Shown here: piece after piece, positions 23,403 to 43,468 of the stretch
Position numbering within the stretch: position 1 is the stretch's first letter
Layout of the letters: the number at the start of each line of letters is the position of its first letter
NCBI GenBank assembly: GCA_016177405.1
Contig: JACOVG010000003.1
Coordinates: 32,050-96,049, forward strand
DNA length: 64,000 nucleotides
Source: Candidatus Omnitrophota bacterium
Lineage (GTDB): Bacteria; Omnitrophota; Gorgyraeia; 1-14-0-20-64-10
Direction: 5' to 3'
Notes under the pieces: generated by a model
The model's input: the letters and a program-made list of their open reading frames with translations, nothing else
What the model was told of the DNA's origin: nothing
The model's database searches: none
Made by a program: the position numbers and the translations under genes

Positions 23403-24143
23403 TTGAAAATCCGCGCGTACGTCCCATCGAATCTTTTGCGTCCAGGCGAGGCGAGGCTTGACCGGCGACAATCCCACCACCTGTCGCGCGTCCTGCGCGT
23501 CGCGCGGGGCAGCCCCATCGAGGTTTTTGACGGTCAGGGAACGGTGGGGCAGGCCGAGGTCCTTCAGGCAAGCCGTGAGGAGGTGATTCTTAGGGTGGAA
23601 GCAGCGGCGAGGGTCCCCGCTCCCGCCCCCAGTCTGGTTCTCGCGGCGGCCCTGGTTCAGGGAGGGAGGTTTGACCAGATCGTGGATCAGGCGACCCAGC
23701 TGGGGGCTTCGGAAATCATCCCTCTGGTCAGCGCGCGAACCGTGGTCAAGCCCGGCGCGGACCGCCGGCAAGCCCTGATCTCCCGTTTTCGCCAGATCGC
23801 GTTGGAGGCCTGCAGGCAGTCGGGCGTCAATCACCTCCCGGTCATTCACCCGGTGACCGATTTCAAGAAGCTGATTCCCGCGCTGGCCGACTGCGATCTG
23901 GTGGTCTTGGGCGCTTTGACGGGTGAGAGGGAGCCCCTCGCGCCCCTGTTGAGCCGAAGGCCTATGAGGCGCCTGCTTCTTTTGATCGGTCCCGAGGGGG
24001 ATTTTACCCCGGAGGAGATCGGCCAGGCCCGGAAGGCCGGGGCCCGCCCCTTCTCGATTGCTCCCAACGTTCTGCGCTGCGAAACCGCCGCGGCGGCGGC
24101 CCTTGGCGTGATCGCTTACTTGCTTCAGGAGCGCTCCCCCTGA
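23403..24143 (+). CDS. rsmE: 16S rRNA (uracil1498-N3)-methyltransferase RsmE
   Basis: TTG start. N-terminal PUA-like HHLSRVLRVARGSPIEVFDGQG; C-terminal SPOUT domain LLLLIGPEGDFTPEEI. Confidence 0.85.
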   Translation: MKIRAYVPSNLLRPGEARLDRRQSHHLSRVLRVARGSPIEVFDGQGTVGQAEVLQASREEVILRVEAAARVPAPAPSLVLAAALVQGGRFDQIVDQATQLGASEIIPLVSARTVVKPGADRRQALISRFRQIALEACRQSGVNHLPVIHPVTDFKKLIPALADCDLVVLGALTGEREPLAPLLSRRPMRRLLLLIGPEGDFTPEEIGQARKAGARPFSIAPNVLRCETAAAAALGVIAYLLQERSP

Positions 24144-24235
24144 AAAGCCTTCAAAAAAATTGCCTTGCGCCCTTGACAAAATGACACAAAATCAGCCATA
24201 GTTGAGGTGGAAGGACAAATTGAGTATTTGGCACC

Positions 24236-24320
24236 GCCGATAAGGGCAAACCACCGGTAACGGTGGGACGCAAAGCCACAGATCCGCCAAAGATCGTTGG
24301 CGGACAGCTGGGTTGCCAAA
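24236..24320 (+). promoter_or_regulatory. c-di-GMP-I (GEMM) riboswitch aptamer
   Basis: AGGGCAAACC-[CACCGGTAACGGTG hairpin with GNRA loop GTAA]-GGGACGCAAAGCC-[CCGCCAAagatcgTTGGCGG hairpin]-ACAGCTGGGTTGCC matches the Vc2 GEMM core (GGCAAACC...GGGACGCAAAGCC...GGGGUUACC) and its P1 pairing GGCAAACC/GGTTGCC. Confidence 0.7.
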
Positions 24321-24338
24321 GGGTGCGAAGGACGACGC

Positions 24339-24380
24339 CTTAAGGCCAAGCGAGTGGTGCCTTAAGGCGTTTTGTGTTAA
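24339..24380 (+). terminator. Intrinsic terminator (likely expression platform of the riboswitch)
   Basis: GCCTTAAGG-ccaagcgagtggtg-CCTTAAGGC followed by GTTTTGTGTT, 25 nt before the ORF at 24405. Confidence 0.6.
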
Positions 24381-24404
24381 CAAACGAAATGGAGGATATC
24401 TCTC

Positions 24405-24725
24405 ATGAAAACACCCACCGAGCTTCAGGCGAAGCAGGCCCACCGGGTCGTCACCTTCCTGGACAGGGCCCAAGTCGATTTCCTGGACAAGCTGGGCAAG
24501 GATGCCCTCTTTTCCACAGGGGTTAAGTTCCCAAGGACGCGGGTGATCTCCGCCCTGATCGATCTGCTGCGCAAGGCCAATGTCAGCGGCGAGGGCCTTC
24601 GGTCCGATCAGGAACTGGAAGAGCGCCTCATCCGAAAGCTGCGGAGCTCCACGCCGGAGATTCAGCGGCTGGCAGGCGAACTGACCGGAGGATCCCATGA
24701 GAATCCCGCTCGATTACGGGGATAA
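24405..24725 (+). CDS. Hypothetical protein (106 aa), first gene downstream of the c-di-GMP riboswitch
   Basis: ORF with GGAGGAT RBS just upstream; no family recognised (possibly a small alpha-helical DNA- or protein-binding protein). Confidence 0.6.
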   Translation: MKTPTELQAKQAHRVVTFLDRAQVDFLDKLGKDALFSTGVKFPRTRVISALIDLLRKANVSGEGLRSDQELEERLIRKLRSSTPEIQRLAGELTGGSHENPARLRG

Positions 24726-24911
24726 TTTTCCCGTCTTGTCGTCCGGCCGCTGGAACCCCTCTGTTCCCTGGAGGTTTCCCCAGGTGGAGGTGGTTGTGAG
24801 GCGCAGGCCGCTGGCGGGTTGGATGCTCCCGTGGCTTATGCTGGGGCTGGGAATGACCCTGGGGGCCCTGGGGGTGATTTGGCTGGTTTGACGCCTTAGA
24901 GGGTAAAGGGA

Positions 24912-25655
24912 ATGCCTTTCAGGCTGGATACACCTTTTTATCCCATTCCCGGGCCGCAGCCGGAGGCCGCCTTCGGCGCGGTGTTGGAGATCCTTCTTAA
25001 GACCCGCCTCAAGCTTCACCTCGAAAGCGACCGCGCGGGTTCCGATGAGGATGTGAACGCCTATCTGGCGGGGCTCTTGGTTTCTTACATCGATCCCCGG
25101 TACCTCACGGCCGTTTCCCAGGTTCTTTCCCGTCATGAGGTGGATGTCTTTCATGCCGTCTGCGGGGCCCGCGAGAATTATCAGGTTTACTGGATCTACA
25201 AGGTCAACGCGGACGACGAGCTGGTCCACCTGGGGGTCTTTGACAGCCGCTGGCAAAACGAGCAGGCCAGGCTCCACCGCATGAAGCGGTATTACACCTT
25301 TGCCTCGGATTACCAGCGTCGGATTTATGGCAAACCGACCGCGGTGGGAGAAATCGAGCAAAAGCTTTCCGATCAATCCGAACGTTACCTTGCCATCCTC
25401 ACCGGAGCCCGGAACGACTACCTGCACATGGCCAAGACGCTTGGGGGACAGGAGCTCCTGGAGATCGAGGAGGGCCTTGCGAGGTTCGAGCAGGAGCTGC
25501 CCCGGCGGACCAAGATGGATGAGTTTTTGGATGCTTATGCCAAGTGGCTTTCGGGCGAGAAGAGCCCGGAGGCCCGAACCAGGATCTTGAGCCTCGCCGA
25601 GGAGCTGAAGGGCTTGGACCCCAGCTTTCCCAAGGAACGCCTTCCAGGTCTATAG
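24912..25655 (+). CDS. Hypothetical protein (247 aa)
   Basis: Clean ORF with GGGTAAAGGGAATG RBS context; no recognisable motifs; it lies in the same putative riboswitch-controlled unit. Confidence 0.55.
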   Translation: MPFRLDTPFYPIPGPQPEAAFGAVLEILLKTRLKLHLESDRAGSDEDVNAYLAGLLVSYIDPRYLTAVSQVLSRHEVDVFHAVCGARENYQVYWIYKVNADDELVHLGVFDSRWQNEQARLHRMKRYYTFASDYQRRIYGKPTAVGEIEQKLSDQSERYLAILTGARNDYLHMAKTLGGQELLEIEEGLARFEQELPRRTKMDEFLDAYAKWLSGEKSPEARTRILSLAEELKGLDPSFPKERLPGL

Positions 25656-25752: not shown

Positions 25753-26286
25753 ATGAGCGGAGTCATCTTGCCTCGGTTTAATTGGGTGGACATCTTTTCC
25801 CTCGTCCTGTTTGTCCGTATGGGGTACATGGGCTTTAAGCTTGGCCTGGGAGAAGAGCTGGTCAAGCTGACGGCCCTGGCCGCCGGATTGATGGCGGGGT
25901 TGAGGTATGGTTCTTGGGCGGGGGGGTGGCTGGCCCAGAAGAGCTTCTTGACGGAGGAATGGGCGAGCGCCGTCAGCCTGGCCGTGATCTTGGGTATTTG
26001 CTACTGGGGTATGCGGAGGCTTCTTTCGCTGGCGGTGCGCTTGGTTTCGGTGAGCTTCCAGGAGCCGCTGGGTTGCTGGGGAGGTTTGGTTGCCGGGTTG
26101 GCCAGGGCAGGGTTGGTGATTTCATTGGTTCTGATCGGCCTTCAGGGGCTTCCCTCGCCGTACTTGAGCGCAGCGATTCAGGAGCGCTCCCTGGCGGGGA
26201 GCTCTTTGACGCGGGTGGCCCCGGCGGTCTACGGAACCCTGGCGCCCTTTTTCAAGCGCTTGGGACTGGTTTTTCGAGGAGGCTGA
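25753..26286 (+). CDS. cvpA: CvpA-family membrane protein
   Basis: Four TM helices; N-terminal NWVDIFSLVLFVRMGYMGFKLGL typical of the CvpA/colicin V production family. Confidence 0.7.
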   Translation: MSGVILPRFNWVDIFSLVLFVRMGYMGFKLGLGEELVKLTALAAGLMAGLRYGSWAGGWLAQKSFLTEEWASAVSLAVILGICYWGMRRLLSLAVRLVSVSFQEPLGCWGGLVAGLARAGLVISLVLIGLQGLPSPYLSAAIQERSLAGSSLTRVAPAVYGTLAPFFKRLGLVFRGG

Positions 26287-28076
26287 TGGGAATCCCGGCC
26301 AGCACGCTGGAACAGATCGGGCAGCGCCTGGATCTTGTGGAGGTGATCGGCGGCTTCGTTTCCTTAAAGAGGTCGGGCCGGAATTTCAAGGGGCTGTGCC
26401 CGTTTCATCCGGAGAAGAGCCCCTCCTTTATGGTTTACCCGGCCAAGCAGTTTTTCATTTGCTACGGGTGCGGAGCGGGAGGAGACCTCATTACCTTTGT
26501 GATGCGGCACGAGCATATGGAATTCAAGGAAGCGGTTCAGGTTCTGGCGGAGAAGGCCGGGATTCAGGTCTCCTTCACCACAGGGGGGCCTTCCTTGGCC
26601 AATCGGCCCCTTTATCAGGCCCATGAGACCGCCGCCGCCTTCTACCATGAAAAGTTGACGGCCTCTCCGGAGGGAGAACCGGCCCGGGCGTATCTTGCCC
26701 ACCGGGGTTTGACGCCCGAAACCTGGAAGGCGCTCCGATTGGGCTTTGCCCTCAACCGCTGGGATGGGTTGTTGACCCACGCGCGGGAGCAGGGCATGGA
26801 CCCCTCCCTTCTGGAGCGGTCGGGCTTGGCGGTCCGCCGGGAAGGCGGCGAAGAGGCCTGGTACGACCGGTTCCGAAACCGGGTTCTCTTTCCCATTTGG
26901 GACCAGCGGGGACGGGTGATCGCTTTTGGCGGAAGGGTTCTTGGGGAGGAGTCCGGACCCAAATACCTGAACTCCCCGGAGACGGAATTGTACGTCAAGG
27001 GCCGGCTGCTTTACGGGTTCCACCTGGCCTCCTCCGCCATCCGGGAGAAGGATTTGGGCATCGTGGTGGAGGGTTACATGGATTTCGCGAGCCTCTACCA
27101 GGCCGGGATCCGCAACATCGTCGCCTCGATGGGGACGAGCCTCACCCCGGAGCAGGTGCAGCTCATTCGGCGGCTGACCCGGCATGTGGTGATGATTTAC
27201 GATGGGGATTACGCCGGCGAGATGGCCACCCTTCGAGGGTTGGATCTTTTCCTGGAGGCCGAGATGCGGGTCAAGGTGGTCGGCTTGCCCAGCGGTTTGG
27301 ACCCGGACACCTTTTTGGCCCAGGCGGGGCTTGAGGAGATGCTCCGGACGATTCGGCAGTCGCAGGACCTCTTTGACTATAAGCTGGGTCTGCTCACCCG
27401 GCGCTATGACCCCAAGGACCTTCAGGGCCGGATTCGGATTTCGGAGGAGATGCTGCCCACGATCAAACGGGTCACCAACGCGATTGAGCGGGGCGAGTAC
27501 GTGAAGCGCTTGAGCGAGGTTTTGCGCGTGGCCGAGACGCTCATCTGGAGTGAGCTGGGCCGGGTGCGCAAGGAGGGCTCCGCCGCCCCCCGCGGGGCCG
27601 CTCGGCCGGAGAAGGTTCAGCCGGCCGCGGGCATGACCGTCGAGGAATCCCTGGCGGGCCTGCTTCTGGAAGAGCCTGGCCGGGTTCGGCAAGTTGAGGA
27701 GAGGCTCCCCCTGGAAGCGTTCCAGGACGCCCACGTCCGAGAAATCCTTTCCCGCTTGCGGCAGATGAGCCAAAGCGGAGCGATTCCGCCGGACGGCCGG
27801 ACCTTTCTGGCCAGCCTTCCCCGGGAAGATTCGGGAGCCTGGGAAGGCCGGATCGCCCGCTGGCTGGCGTGGGCCGATTTGGTGGTCGACAAGGAAGGCA
27901 CCCTCGAGGAGCTTTTGGGCAAGGTGAAGGAGGGGCAAGTTCGTTCTTCCCTGGAGGCCCTCCAGGTCTCCATCCGGCAGGCCGAGGCCCAGGGCCAGGA
28001 GAGGGAGACGGCTCAATTGATCGCGCAGTACAACACGCTCATGAAGTCGCGCTTAAGCGGAAAAGGAGTAGCCTAA
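26286..28076 (+). CDS. dnaG: DNA primase
   Basis: Zinc-binding [30 protein letters not shown]; [15 protein letters not shown]...IYDGDYAG. The track ORF 25914 is an in-frame upstream extension; ATG 26286 overlaps the cvpA stop. Confidence 0.95.
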
Positions 28077-28080
28077 GGTT

Positions 28081-29712
28081 ATGCCCCGCGCAGCCAAAAA
28101 GAATCCGCGCACGATGCGGCACATGGATGAATTAAAGAAATTGATCGCCCTGGGCAAGGAGAAGGGCCACCTGACCTATGAGGAGGTGAACAACCTCCTG
28201 CCCGAGGACGTCACCTCCTCCGAGGAGATCGAGGAGGTCCTCACGATCTTAGGCAGCGAGAACATCGAGATCGTGGACGACGAGGAGCCCTCCAAGGCCG
28301 GACTGGCCGAATCGGAGCCGGCCGAAGCGCCGGAGGCCGCCTCCGAAGAGAAGGCGGAGGAGCCCTCCGAGGAGGAGGCCGAACCGGCCCGCTCCTCCTT
28401 GCCGGTGGATGATCCGGTGCGGATGTACCTTCGGCAGATGGGCCAGATCCCTCTTCTTTCCAGGGAGAGCGAGCTCAAGTTGGCCAAGGAGATCAAGGAG
28501 GCCGAGGTCCACTTTCGGGAGGTCGTCTTCGCTTCGGTCCTTGCCCAACGGGAGATCTTTGCCTTGGTGGATCGGATCAAGGCCAAGGAGGTCAATCCGG
28601 AGGAGTACGTCACCGAGGATTTCAAGCGGAAGGAGCGGCTCGGTCCCAAGATGGCGCGGCTGGCGGCCAAGGCGCAGGCCACCCGCTCTATCCCCAAGCG
28701 GAACCAGCACCTCCTTCAGATGCGCTTCATGAGCCCCGTGGTGGGAGAGATTGCCAAGAAGCTCAAGAGGGCGGTGGCCGAATACGACCGCTTGATCCGG
28801 GAGACCGACCGGGTGAAGGCCAAGGGAGGCACGGGGGTGCGCCAGAAGGTCAAGGCGCTCCGGAAGAATCTTCTCAAGGTTCAGAAGACTTTGGGTCAGC
28901 CCCGCAAGGAGCTGGAGGAGCTTCTCCTCAATCTCAAGAAGCGCGAGGCCGTCTACATCCGGGCGAAGCGCGCCCTGGTGGAGGCCAACCTTCGGCTTGT
29001 GGTGTCCATCGCCAAGAAGTACACCAACCGGGGGCTGTCGTTCCTGGACCTGATCCAGGAGGGGAACATCGGCCTGATGAAGGCGGTGGACAAATTTGAG
29101 TATGAGCGAGGATACAAATTCTCCACCTACGCGACCTGGTGGATCCGCCAAGCGATCACGCGGGCCATCGCCGACCAGGCCCGGACCATCCGGATCCCGG
29201 TTCACATGACCGAAACGATCAACAAGCTGATCCGGGTTTCCCGGCAGCTGGTCCAGGAAAACGGCAAGGAACCGAACCCCGAGGAGATTGCCTACGAGAT
29301 GCGGATGCCGGTGGATCGGGTGCGGGGTATCTTGAAAATCGCCCAGGAGCCGATTTCCCTTCAGACCCCCATCGGGGATGACGGCGACACCCACTTCGGC
29401 GATTTCATCGAGGACAAGAGAGCCGTTTCTCCGGCCAACGCCACCGCCCACGCGATGCTCAAGGAGCAGATGGAGTCGGTTCTGGAGACCTTGACCGAGC
29501 GGGAGGGGCAGGTTCTGAAGCTGCGCTTTGGAATTGGCGACGGCTATCCCCGGACCCTGGAGGAGGTGGGCTCGATCTTTAAGGTCACGCGCGAGCGGGT
29601 CCGGCAGATTGAAGCCAAGGCCTTAAGGAAGCTGCGTCACCCCATCCGCTCCCGCCGCCTGAAGTCCTTCCTGGAGCTGGGGGCCTTAAGCGAAGAGCGC
29701 GGCTGGCTGTAA
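28081..29712 (+). CDS. rpoD: RNA polymerase primary sigma factor
   Basis: 543 aa; region 1.1 acidic tract; region 2 to 4 motifs [56 protein letters not shown]; classic dnaG-rpoD linkage. Confidence 0.95.
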
Positions 29713-29716
29713 TTCT

Positions 29717-29789
29717 TGGGCCCGCCTGGATTCGAACCAGGGACCAACTCATTATGAGTGAGCTGCTCTAACCGCTGAGCTACGGGCCC
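29717..29789 (-). tRNA. tRNA-Met (anticodon CAT; elongator type, could also be the lysidine-modified tRNA-Ile2)
   Basis: Reverse complement folds as GGGCCCG-TA-GCTC-AGCGGTTA-GAGC-A-GCTCA-CTCATAA-TGAGT-TGGTC-CCTGG-TTCGAAT-CCAGG-CGGGCCC-A. The 1:72 pair is G:C, so it is not an initiator. Confidence 0.8.
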
Positions 29790-29909
29790 GCGGTCCTTTT
29801 GCCTTCCGTATTATAAAGCAAGCCGCCCGCTTTACCCCTTCCTTTCCGCACGCTTCTCCCGTAGAATAGAATTTCTGACTTCTTCCTCTGGAGGAGGGGG
29901 CATGTTCAT

Positions 29910-29987
29910 TGGGCGCATAGCTCAGCCCGGTTAGAGCGCTACGCTCACATCGTAGAGGTCACAGGTTCAAGTCCTGTTGCGCCCACC
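29910..29987 (+). tRNA. tRNA-Val (anticodon CAC), 3' CCA encoded
   Basis: Folds as GGGCGCA-TA-GCTC-AGCCCGGTTA-GAGC-G-CTACG-CTCACAT-CGTAG-AGGTC-ACAGG-TTCAAGT-CCTGT-TGCGCCC-A-CCA. Confidence 0.8.
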
Positions 29988-31263: not shown

Positions 31264-31625
31264 GGAAGAGCAGGCCGGATGGTCGCCCGCCAACGTTCTT
31301 TGGCGGGAGGAAAGTCCGGACTCCCAAGGGCAGCGGAGTGGGTAACACCCATCCCCCGCGAGGGGAGGATCAGAGCCACAGAGACGAGTCTCCGCCAGAG
31401 ATCTTTGGCGGAGGGTGAAACGGGCAATCTCTCCGCGGAGCAAGACCAAGCAGACCTTGCCGATCAGCGGCCCGCTGGATGGAGCGTAAATTCACTCCGG
31501 GCAGGGCGGGTAGGTCGCACAGATTCTCCGCCGCAAGGCGGGGAACCAGAGGAATGACCATCTCCCCGCCAATGTACTTTGGCGGGGAACAGAATCCGGC
31601 TTATAGGCCTGTCTCTTCCCAACCG
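31264..31625 (+). ncRNA. rnpB: RNase P RNA, bacterial type A
   Basis: GGAAAGTCCGGACTCC, AGGGCAGCGGAGTGGGTAACACCCATCC, AGGGTGAAACGGG, AGCAAGACCAAGCAG, ACAGAATCCGGCTTATAGGCC universal motifs; P1 formed by GGGAAGAGCAGGCC (31263..31276) and GGCCTGTCTCTTCCC (31606..31620); perfect TATAAT at 31251..31256. Confidence 0.85.
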
Positions 31626-42371: not shown

Positions 42372-43468
42372 AGACGCTGATACTGGCGGGGGGGTCGGGA
42401 GGGCATCTGATTCCGGCCTTGGCGCTGGGCGAGCATCTGGGACGGCAGGGCGAGTGCCTCTTGGTGAGCACCCAGCGCCCGGTGGATCAGATCCTCCGGA
42501 CCCAAACGTCCCTCCGGTGGGAGACGACGCCCCTGGAACCCTTCACGCCCCTGTCCCGGTGGCTCTCGGTCCGGCATTGGGCCCGCCAGCTCTCGGCGGC
42601 CTGGCGGATGCTGGGGGTCTTGAGACGGACGCGGCCTGACGTGGTGGTGGGATTCGGAGGATATCCCAGCCTGGTCGGGATGGTCCTGGCGCGGGCGGCC
42701 GGTTTTCCGACCGTTTTGCACGAGGCCAACGTGGTCCCCGGGCGGGCCAATCGGTGGCTTTCCCGCTGGGTGGACGCCGTGGCGGTCTCCTTTCCGGAAA
42801 CCCGGCAGGGATTATCGGCCAGGGCCGTGGTGGAGGTGACCGGAAATCCCCTGCGGCCGGGGCTTCGGGAGGCGGATCCGGCCCGGGCCCGGCGCTTCTT
42901 TGGGCTGGATGAAACCCGGCCCGTTCTTCTGGTCATGGGCGGTTCCCAGGGTTCCCGGGCGGTCAATCAACTGGTCCTGGCGATGTGGGAGGGGCAGGCG
43001 GCCGCCTTCCGGCAGGGCTGGCAGGTTCTTCACGTCGCGGGCTGCGATCACCGGCCGGCGGTGGAGGGGGCGTATCGGCGCCTGGGCATGAATTCCAAGG
43101 TCTTTGGTTTTCTTCAGGAGATGCCGATGGCCTTGGCCTGCGCCGCGTTAAGCATCTCCAGGGCCGGGGCCACGGCCGTCTCGGAGCTGGCGGCCTGCCA
43201 GGTTCCGGCGATCTTGATACCCTATCCCCACGCGCAGGCGCACCAGCGCTCCAACGCCCAATGGATGCGGGACTTAGGCGGCGCGGTGATTTTGGAAGAG
43301 GCGGGGCTTAAGCCCGGCCGCCTGGCGCGAGAATTTCAGGACCTCGCGGGCGATCCCAGCCGGCGGCAGCGGATGCGGCAAGCCCTGAAGGGCGCCTCCC
43401 AAGACAACGCCGTGGAGGCGCTGGCTTCCTTGGCCCGGCGAATGGCCGATGGAGGGGCGGGGGGGTGA
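42368..43468 (+). CDS. murG: UDP-N-acetylglucosamine--N-acetylmuramyl-(pentapeptide) pyrophosphoryl-undecaprenol N-acetylglucosamine transferase
   Basis: GTG start overlapping the ftsW stop; LILAGGSGGHLIPALAL G-loop; C-terminal GT-B domain. Confidence 0.9.
   Translation: MKTLILAGGSGGHLIPALALGEHLGRQGECLLVSTQRPVDQILRTQTSLRWETTPLEPFTPLSRWLSVRHWARQLSAAWRMLGVLRRTRPDVVVGFGGYPSLVGMVLARAAGFPTVLHEANVVPGRANRWLSRWVDAVAVSFPETRQGLSARAVVEVTGNPLRPGLREADPARARRFFGLDETRPVLLVMGGSQGSRAVNQLVLAMWEGQAAAFRQGWQVLHVAGCDHRPAVEGAYRRLGMNSKVFGFLQEMPMALACAALSISRAGATAVSELAACQVPAILIPYPHAQAHQRSNAQWMRDLGGAVILEEAGLKPGRLAREFQDLAGDPSRRQRMRQALKGASQDNAVEALASLARRMADGGAGG

Follow-up and report, generated by a model that had tools for sequence, protein, structure and literature searches.

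The window analysed here is a stretch of 64,000 nucleotides from an uncultured member of Candidatus Omnitrophota, a phylum whose signalling is readable from sequence only. A promoter, an aptamer and a terminator lie in it directly upstream of a conserved three-gene unit, and the gene order around them is itself conserved: a gene for a small exported-looking protein, rsmE, the promoter-aptamer-terminator unit, ORF1, ORF-M, ORF2 and cvpA. In the window, cvpA, dnaG and rpoD (25753-29712) directly follow the riboswitch-controlled unit; two tRNAs (29717-29985) and then RNase P RNA (31267-31620, 201.8 bits) come after them. The main features are as follows.

24173-24202, forward strand: sigma-70-like promoter, with a -35 box TTGACA (24173-24178), an 18-nt spacer and a -10 box CATAGT (24197-24202); 10 of 12 consensus positions match
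24230-24327, forward strand: functional aptamer, made up of the Rfam limits plus the outer P1 helix
24236-24321, forward strand: c-di-GMP-I aptamer in its Rfam limits (RF03167, 63.9 bits)
24334-24380, forward strand: intrinsic terminator, with a 13-bp stem of GACGCCUUAAGGC (24334-24346) and GCCUUAAGGCGUU (24359-24371) and the U-rich tail UUUUGUGUU; conserved in 34 of 34 leaders
24405-24725, forward strand: ORF1, 106 aa, a highly conserved small protein and the first controlled gene, with the ribosome-binding site GAGGA at 24392-24396
24697-24891, forward strand: ORF-M, 64 aa, overlapping the end of ORF1, with about 37 conserved N-terminal residues and a hydrophobic C-terminus
24912-25655, forward strand: ORF2, 247 aa, all-helical, the last gene of the three-gene unit

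A c-di-GMP-I (GEMM) riboswitch had been proposed at this position in a first-pass annotation. The best Rfam model for 24236-24321 on the forward strand (cmscan, gathering threshold) is RF03167, a member of clan CL00126, which scores 63.9 bits (cut-off 59, E = 9e-13) and is aligned over model positions 1-80 of 80; two further models of the clan also score at least their own cut-offs, at lower values, the score on display being that of RF03167 only. The clan's gathering score is thus reached and the proposal stands, the comparison of the covariance-model score with the Rfam threshold giving no refutation. No other riboswitch in the 64 kb matches at Rfam gathering thresholds. With a purpose-built covariance model (R1) the aptamer scores 103.8 bits. 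Its leader contains the GGCAAACC...GGGACGCAAAGCC core, of which GGGACGCAAAGCC had been pointed out as the GEMM signature, and folds far more stably than shuffled sequence (z = -4.8). The proposal is confirmed by the Rfam score, the core and the fold stability, together with the P2 and P3 hairpins, the terminator and the promoter-like site; as far as sequence can tell, the element is a genuine class-I c-di-GMP riboswitch with a terminator, belonging to a well-known class in a poorly studied phylum.

An alignment of ORF2 served to fetch homologous loci, 49 from genomes and 80 from metagenomes. Of 18 Omnitrophota genome loci, 13 have an Rfam clan hit 750-900 nt upstream of ORF2, and 12 of these 13 were used to build the covariance model. 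The model finds 35 leaders (34 distinct sequences), all on the coding strand, upstream of ORF1 and in Omnitrophota-type loci; the promoter-aptamer-terminator unit precedes ORF1 in 35 related Candidatus Omnitrophota loci. Beside the distantly related ORF2 homologs from Eisenbacteria and other phyla (L019-L049, L085-L129) the same model found no aptamer, and the more distant loci that lack ORF1 lack the aptamer as well.

Four strands and hairpins make up the aptamer.

24230-24239, forward strand: 5' strand of P1, the switching sequence "a" (GGCACCGCCG), which has two alternative partners, the P1 3' strand and the top of the terminator hairpin
24246-24271, forward strand: P2 (P1b in the Vc2 literature), with the pairs G24246-C24271 and C24247-G24270 and the hairpin 24251-24256/24261-24266
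24274-24314, forward strand: P3 (P2 in the Vc2 literature), 24274-24290 with 24297-24314, ending in the tip hairpin UCCGCCAA..UUGGCGGA
24317-24326, forward strand: 3' strand of P1 ("a'"), with C24317 pairing G24239 and GGUGC (24322-24326) pairing GCACC (24231-24235)

The P2 hairpin CCACCG/CGGUGG carries the GNRA loop that had been described for it, GUAA at 24257-24260; most homologs have GYAA, GAAA or GCGA in its place. In c-di-GMP-I riboswitches such a loop docks into a receptor in P3. C24269, in the P2 region, is the equivalent of C44. The P3 hairpin expected to follow P2 is present at 24274-24314 and its pairs covary; it contains a bulged A (24278) and two unpaired residues, A24306 and G24307, the latter equivalent to G83. 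The earlier description of P1 has to be replaced. Its supposed strands, AGGGCAAACC and GGGTTGCC, correspond to J1/2 plus the base of P2 and to the P3 3' strand plus J3/1, respectively: GC at 24246-47 pairs with GC at 24270-71 at the base of P2, and GGGUU is part of the P3 3' strand. The actual P1 consists of the pair G24239-C24317 and the outer helix GCACC/GGUGC (24231-24235/24322-24326). A pairing close to the earlier P1, of GGC 24245-47 with GCC 24315-17, was returned by RNAalifold from the raw MAFFT alignment; it was rejected because these columns are invariant and the Rfam consensus pairs the GC with the GC of GACGC.

In the 35-sequence alignment (A3), which was fitted to the structure of the model, 96% of the P2/P3 cells are paired and 14 of the 23 pairs show changes on both sides (4 of 6 in the P2 hairpin, 10 of 13 in P3). 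None of 500 shuffles reaches the observed pairing and double changes, and sliding the partners by 1-3 columns lowers pairing to 26-44%. For outer P1, the cognate strands have a mean energy of -8.3 kcal/mol versus -6.5 kcal/mol for non-cognate ones, a mean reached by 0 of 5000 permutations; the variants across leaders include GCACC/GGUGC, GGUUCC/GGACC, GAUCC/GGAUC-like and GGGCC/GGUCC. All three helices covary in the homologous leaders, and this check, which the first-pass annotation had put forward, likewise yields no refutation.

The tip of P3 belongs to a recurrent type of GC hairpin. Hairpins of the form CCGCCA-N8-(T)TGGCGG occur five times in the window versus 0.15 expected, at 24284-24303, 31287-31306, 31392-31411 and 31566-31585, and also at 42583-42607; P3 of the riboswitch ends in one of them, and three sit at the ends of helices in the RNase P RNA (31267-31620). 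A GAUC-containing loop is shared by two of the CCGCCA-type hairpins (AAAGATCGTT and AGAGATCTTT). In the homologous loci the density of CCGCC..GGCGG hairpins is about 12-fold higher within the aptamers than in their flanks, and these hairpins are inserted within P2 (L002, L005, L050), in the P2-P3 gap (L006) or at the P3 tip (the window, L011, L063, L064). They may represent a small mobile hairpin or a common module for protein binding or stabilisation that is restricted to the structured RNAs of the lineage. In many Omnitrophota loci a near-identical hairpin, CCGCCAGnGATCCTGGCGG, with a GATC loop, precedes the riboswitch by about 1.2 kb, in front of the small gene located before rsmE (L016:2022, L014:1568, L017:1989, L079:291, L004:1751, L003:1946, L064:324, L077:504 and L009:1895).

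The class of the aptamer is reflected by three residues of its ligand pocket.

24245, forward strand: equivalent of G20 (Vc2 numbering), which contacts one ligand guanine (PMC11705072); G in 34 of 35 homologs
24272, forward strand: equivalent of A47, which intercalates between both ligand bases; A in 35 of 35 homologs, with G as the RF03167 consensus
24316, forward strand: equivalent of C92, which forms a Watson-Crick pair with the other ligand guanine (PMC11705072); C in 35 of 35 homologs

In Vc2, C92 adjoins the G14 pair of P1a, G20 adjoins G21 of P1b, and C44 and G83 form a tertiary pair (PMC11705072). The pocket of the window aptamer is G24245/A24272/C24316, and the same G/A/C combination is found in 34 of the 35 homologous leaders. 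RF03167, which ranks first among the clan models for the window (63.9 bits) as well as for 10 of the 13 homologous genome loci, is the GGC variant class, a name that we take, from the consensus and the name itself, to denote positions 20, 47 and 92. That the element belongs to this class and senses a ligand other than c-di-GMP is nevertheless very improbable. The RF03167 consensus reads GACGC-G-AA (GACGCGAA), as against GACGC-A-AA in the window; the window and 35 of 35 homologs share GACGCAAA, so that A, not G, directly follows the P2-closing GC in all of them, and A24272 is a mismatch to the model column in which the consensus has G. Moreover, RF01051 is the best model for three homologs (L011 with 60.9 bits, L002 and L006; its cut-off is 35), and the c-di-GMP-I clan models recognise the same sequences according to a published survey (PMC9943018). 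Because of the G/A/C pocket, the top rank of RF01051 in these three homologs and the shared targets of the clan models, the window element is filed as a canonical c-di-GMP-I aptamer with a G20/A47/C92 pocket and not as a GGC variant, with c-di-GMP as its predicted ligand; judged by these residues, the top Rfam label "GGC" is misleading for it.

The identical fold of 3',3'-cGAMP sensors of the GEMM-Ib type also raises that molecule as a ligand in place of c-di-GMP, as does the A found at position 20 of one homolog (L069). The window and the other 34 of the 35 homologs have G there, however, and the ORF1 domain occurs fused to PilZ, a c-di-GMP receptor domain, so a cGAMP sensor appears most improbable and c-di-GMP is retained as the presumed ligand. 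As to the single deviating leader (L069:494-630), its A instead of G at position 20 is the change typical of 3',3'-cGAMP-sensing GEMM-Ib, while a close relative, L072, has G there.

Upstream of the aptamer, the -35 box TTGACA that had been reported at 24172 exists, at 24173-24178. Promoter-like sites number two in the region versus 0.1 expected, and transcription is predicted to start near 24209. A motif, cccTTGACAaaTTGACAca...CCAtcCTT, lies upstream of the homologous leaders at an equal distance. The promoter region (24160-24205 in the window; L001-L017 and L050-L096) is conserved well beyond the hexamers: the conserved part comprises cccTTGACAaaTTGACAca with a direct repeat of TTGACA and includes TTGACAaaTTGACA, and in many homologs it is flanked by an inverted repeat, TGGCAC...GTGCCA, with the first transcribed bases, uGGaAGgACAAU, conserved too. 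The window copy of this extended motif is more degenerate than those of the homologs. The extended region may be an operator, perhaps an autoregulatory one.

Downstream of the aptamer, a hairpin followed by a T-run (-19 to -33 kcal/mol) begins 5-12 nt after P1 in 34 of 34 distinct leaders, and its arms are conserved in sequence (acGCCUGrrGG...CCUUCAGGCGUUUU). The hairpin of the window alone has about -20.7 kcal/mol. A strong terminator had been placed about 20 nt downstream; it is there, at a spacing of about 8 nt from the P1 3' strand or 13 nt from the Rfam hit. The suggested attenuation of transcription is supported by the presence of the terminator in 34 of 34 distinct leaders together with a covarying antiterminator, which is described below. 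It might be argued that the aptamer is a relic and that the terminator is a constitutive attenuator or simply terminates the upstream rsmE, which ends at 24143, about 190 nt before it; the terminator state is indeed thermodynamically favoured in all leaders. This explanation is hardly credible in view of the conserved promoter that lies between rsmE and the aptamer, the invariant pocket, the compensatory changes in the helices, an antiterminator that covaries though ORF2 is only 42-60% identical, and the absence of the aptamer from the distant loci without ORF1. A working, terminator-coupled riboswitch is thus the preferred reading.

The predicted antiterminator consists of two nested helices.

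24351-24361, forward strand: 3' strand of antiterminator helix 1 (AT1), "a''" (CGAGUGGUGCC), located in the terminator's loop and upper 3' arm, pairing with 24230-24239
24315-24346, forward strand: antiterminator helix 2 (AT2), in which the 5' arm of the terminator (24333-24346) is the partner of 24315-24327 (J3/1 plus the P1 3' strand)

AT1 (24230-24239/24351-24361) has 10 bp and one bulge, with a duplex energy of -18.5 kcal/mol. AT2 is formed by the pairs GCC/GGC, AGGGUG/CGCCUU and CG/CG; it is part of the fold of lowest free energy when the transcript ends at 24361, and has equivalents in the truncated folds of most homologs. With transcripts cut just 3' of the AT1 element, the long-range helix AT1 is part of the minimum-free-energy fold in 28 of 34 leaders and absent from 6. 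It appears only in folds that include the terminator apex, and folds cut within the terminator loop gave no evidence of a classical antiterminator, in which the 3' half of the aptamer pairs with only the 5' arm of the terminator. In the minimum-free-energy folds of the window, P1 is kept in transcripts up to about 24353 and the nested antiterminator is present at 24361, with P2 and P3 intact. Use of the 5' strand of P1 over a distance of about 120 nt is rarer among antiterminators than use of the 3' strand only.

The pairing of AT1 is specific to the sequence type of a leader. With its own terminator hairpin, the 5' segment of P1 (15 nt) forms a duplex of -14.7 kcal/mol on average, as compared with -10.95 for hairpins of other sequence types and -9.9 kcal/mol when the segment is shuffled, and 0 of 5000 permutations reach the cognate mean, a statistic that is inflated by related sequences. 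Within one sequence type, non-cognate pairs (-14.1) and cognate pairs (-14.7) are almost equal. Covariation of the two strands can be followed from UACCAGUGA/UCACUGGUA (L003), UCCCGUGAC/GUCACGGGA (L078), UGCCAGUG/CACUGGCA (L067) and CCACUGAC/GUCAGUGG (L013) to GGCACCGC/GUGGUGCC in the window.

At full length, the aptamer plus terminator of the window has -73.6 kcal/mol versus -69.0 for the antiterminator state, a gap of 4.6 kcal/mol, and the terminator still forms when P1 is forced in folding. Since the equilibrium favours aptamer plus terminator in every leader (median 9.3, up to 23 kcal/mol; more than 15 kcal/mol in several), readthrough would depend on kinetic trapping. In the ligand-free RNA, P1 would be weak, with 5 bp plus 1-2 bp, and as the terminator region is being transcribed both of its strands could be captured in the nested two-helix antiterminator: 24230-24239 would pair with 24351-24361 and 24315-24327 with 24333-24346, allowing readthrough into ORF1. 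Binding of c-di-GMP at the three-helix junction would lock P1 and leave both terminator arms free, whereupon the 13-bp terminator would form and transcription would stop near 24372-24380.

The first-pass annotation gave no direction for the switch. OFF is suggested because the switching sequences are the two strands of P1, a helix that is stabilised by the ligand and whose length is critical for binding in Vc2 (PMC11705072). The ligand and the kinetic order of folding are predictions, and the direction of the switch, which follows from these two, is likewise a prediction; OFF is the direction that we consider reasonably likely. With an ON switch, the aptamer and the ligand would be unchanged and binding of c-di-GMP would prevent termination. 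Both ON and OFF types of c-di-GMP-I riboswitch are generally known, and for the homologs fused to PilZ it is intuitive that a receptor be made when its ligand is abundant. Against this direction, P1 and the terminator stem do not overlap, being separated by a linker of 5-12 nt in all leaders; the full terminator forms even with P1 forced; complementarity to the terminator resides in the two strands of P1, both of which are sequestered by the ligand; and no conserved element was found that disrupts the terminator specifically in the bound state. An ON switch is therefore rather unlikely, and the locus is probably best described as a canonical c-di-GMP-I riboswitch in the leader of the ORF1-ORF-M-ORF2 operon, terminator-based and most likely OFF.

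The operon had been described as one of unknown genes; the controlled genes indeed belong to no known family, and ORF1 gives no Pfam, NCBIfam or PDB sequence match. The identity of ORF1 across the clade (68-82%) is far above that of ORF2 (42-62%). An AlphaFold monomer model of ORF1 is unusable (pLDDT 51). A ribbon-helix-helix fold was considered for ORF1 and received no statistical support, hhalign against nine ribbon-helix-helix proteins giving a probability of 0.1-0.3%. ORF-M gives tblastn hits in 46 loci, each time between ORF1 and ORF2, and the locus-tag numbering of the metagenome-assembled genome leaves one tag free between these two genes; ORF-M (24697-24891) is a gene easily missed in annotation. 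Homologs of ORF2 are annotated only as hypothetical proteins of Candidatus Omnitrophica, among them a 100%-identical protein, HYS41_00475, and no informative structural neighbour was found for ORF2.

A profile search with ORF1 among 1.84 billion representatives retrieves 205 clusters, most of them of 80-120 aa and about thirty of 183-262 aa. Among 18 homologs of at least 165 aa (including P0250, P0274, P0290, P0299, P0316, P0311, P0363 and P0375), a Pfam scan identifies a C-terminal PilZ domain in 12, a receiver domain followed by a C-terminal ORF1 domain in 3, and no second domain in 3. The RxxxR and [D/N]xSxxG motifs are present in each of the five ORF1-PilZ sequences that were read. Seven further loci, six with ORF1-PilZ fusions (L130-L135) and one with a distant stand-alone ORF1 homolog (L136), all have an aptamer and terminator directly upstream of the ORF1-domain gene, with a G/A/C pocket and 62-82 bits in the purpose-built model; L130 scores 63.3 bits with RF03167 and has rsmE 3.4 kb upstream, and rsmE lies upstream in the window too. 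A pattern search for GGDEF found none in the window, which at a size of 64 kb is uninformative.

The ORF1 domain hence occurs in three forms: stand-alone with a predicted OFF riboswitch in this Omnitrophota clade, fused to PilZ with a riboswitch in other uncultured bacteria, and as the C-terminal output of receiver proteins. From this distribution it appears to serve signalling proteins as an output module and to have two independent ties to c-di-GMP, by the PilZ fusions and by the riboswitch upstream, including that of the PilZ-fusion genes. As a tentative proposal, for which the chances are somewhat less than even, the domain of about 75 residues (HRVVTFLDRxQVDFLDKLGKDALFSTGxK..RT.IIsALI) would be an undescribed two-level c-di-GMP output module, and the antiterminator an unusual one that consumes both P1 strands. 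If this is true, and if activity resides in the apo form, the ORF1 module would be shut off by c-di-GMP at the transcriptional as well as the post-translational level.

In uncultured Candidatus Omnitrophota, a c-di-GMP riboswitch names members of a regulon. Here it points to the PilZ- and receiver-linked ORF1 family as a concrete candidate for a new c-di-GMP effector. The locus also illustrates that clan competition in Rfam can label canonical c-di-GMP-I aptamers as the GGC variant, which would mislead automated annotation of ligand specificity. What goes beyond an ordinary member of the class is this mislabelling, the predicted antiterminator on both P1 strands, and the riboswitch link to a new domain family associated with PilZ and receiver domains.

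The window aptamer resembles the c-di-GMP-I reference (RF01051; Vc2 of Vibrio cholerae) in its three-helix junction, the GNRA tetraloop of P2, the GGCAAACC...GACGCAAAGCC core, and the equivalents of the pocket residues G20/A47/C92 and of C44 and G83. It differs from the reference in its Omnitrophota setting, in J1/2, where AAAGGC or AAGGGC takes the place of CAGGGC, in a short, interrupted P1 and in a variable P3 tip, which often has extra CCGCC..GGCGG hairpins. Vc2 is usually described as working without an adjacent intrinsic terminator. With respect to the GGC variant (RF03167), the sequence is very close to the consensus of this top model, whereas position 47 is A, not G; with the c-AMP-GMP (3',3'-cGAMP, GEMM-Ib) riboswitches that occur in Geobacter, the window aptamer shares the fold, whereas position 20 is G, not A, except in the homolog L069. 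Cd1 of Clostridioides difficile and Bc1/Bc2 of Bacillus thuringiensis are terminator-coupled OFF c-di-GMP-I riboswitches of Firmicutes (PMC11218506, PMC4933901). As in these, the terminator of the window lies directly 3' of the aptamer and the ligand is predicted to raise termination; unlike them, the predicted antiterminator consists of two nested helices on both P1 strands, with the P1 5' strand reaching to the terminator apex, and the controlled genes are unrelated.
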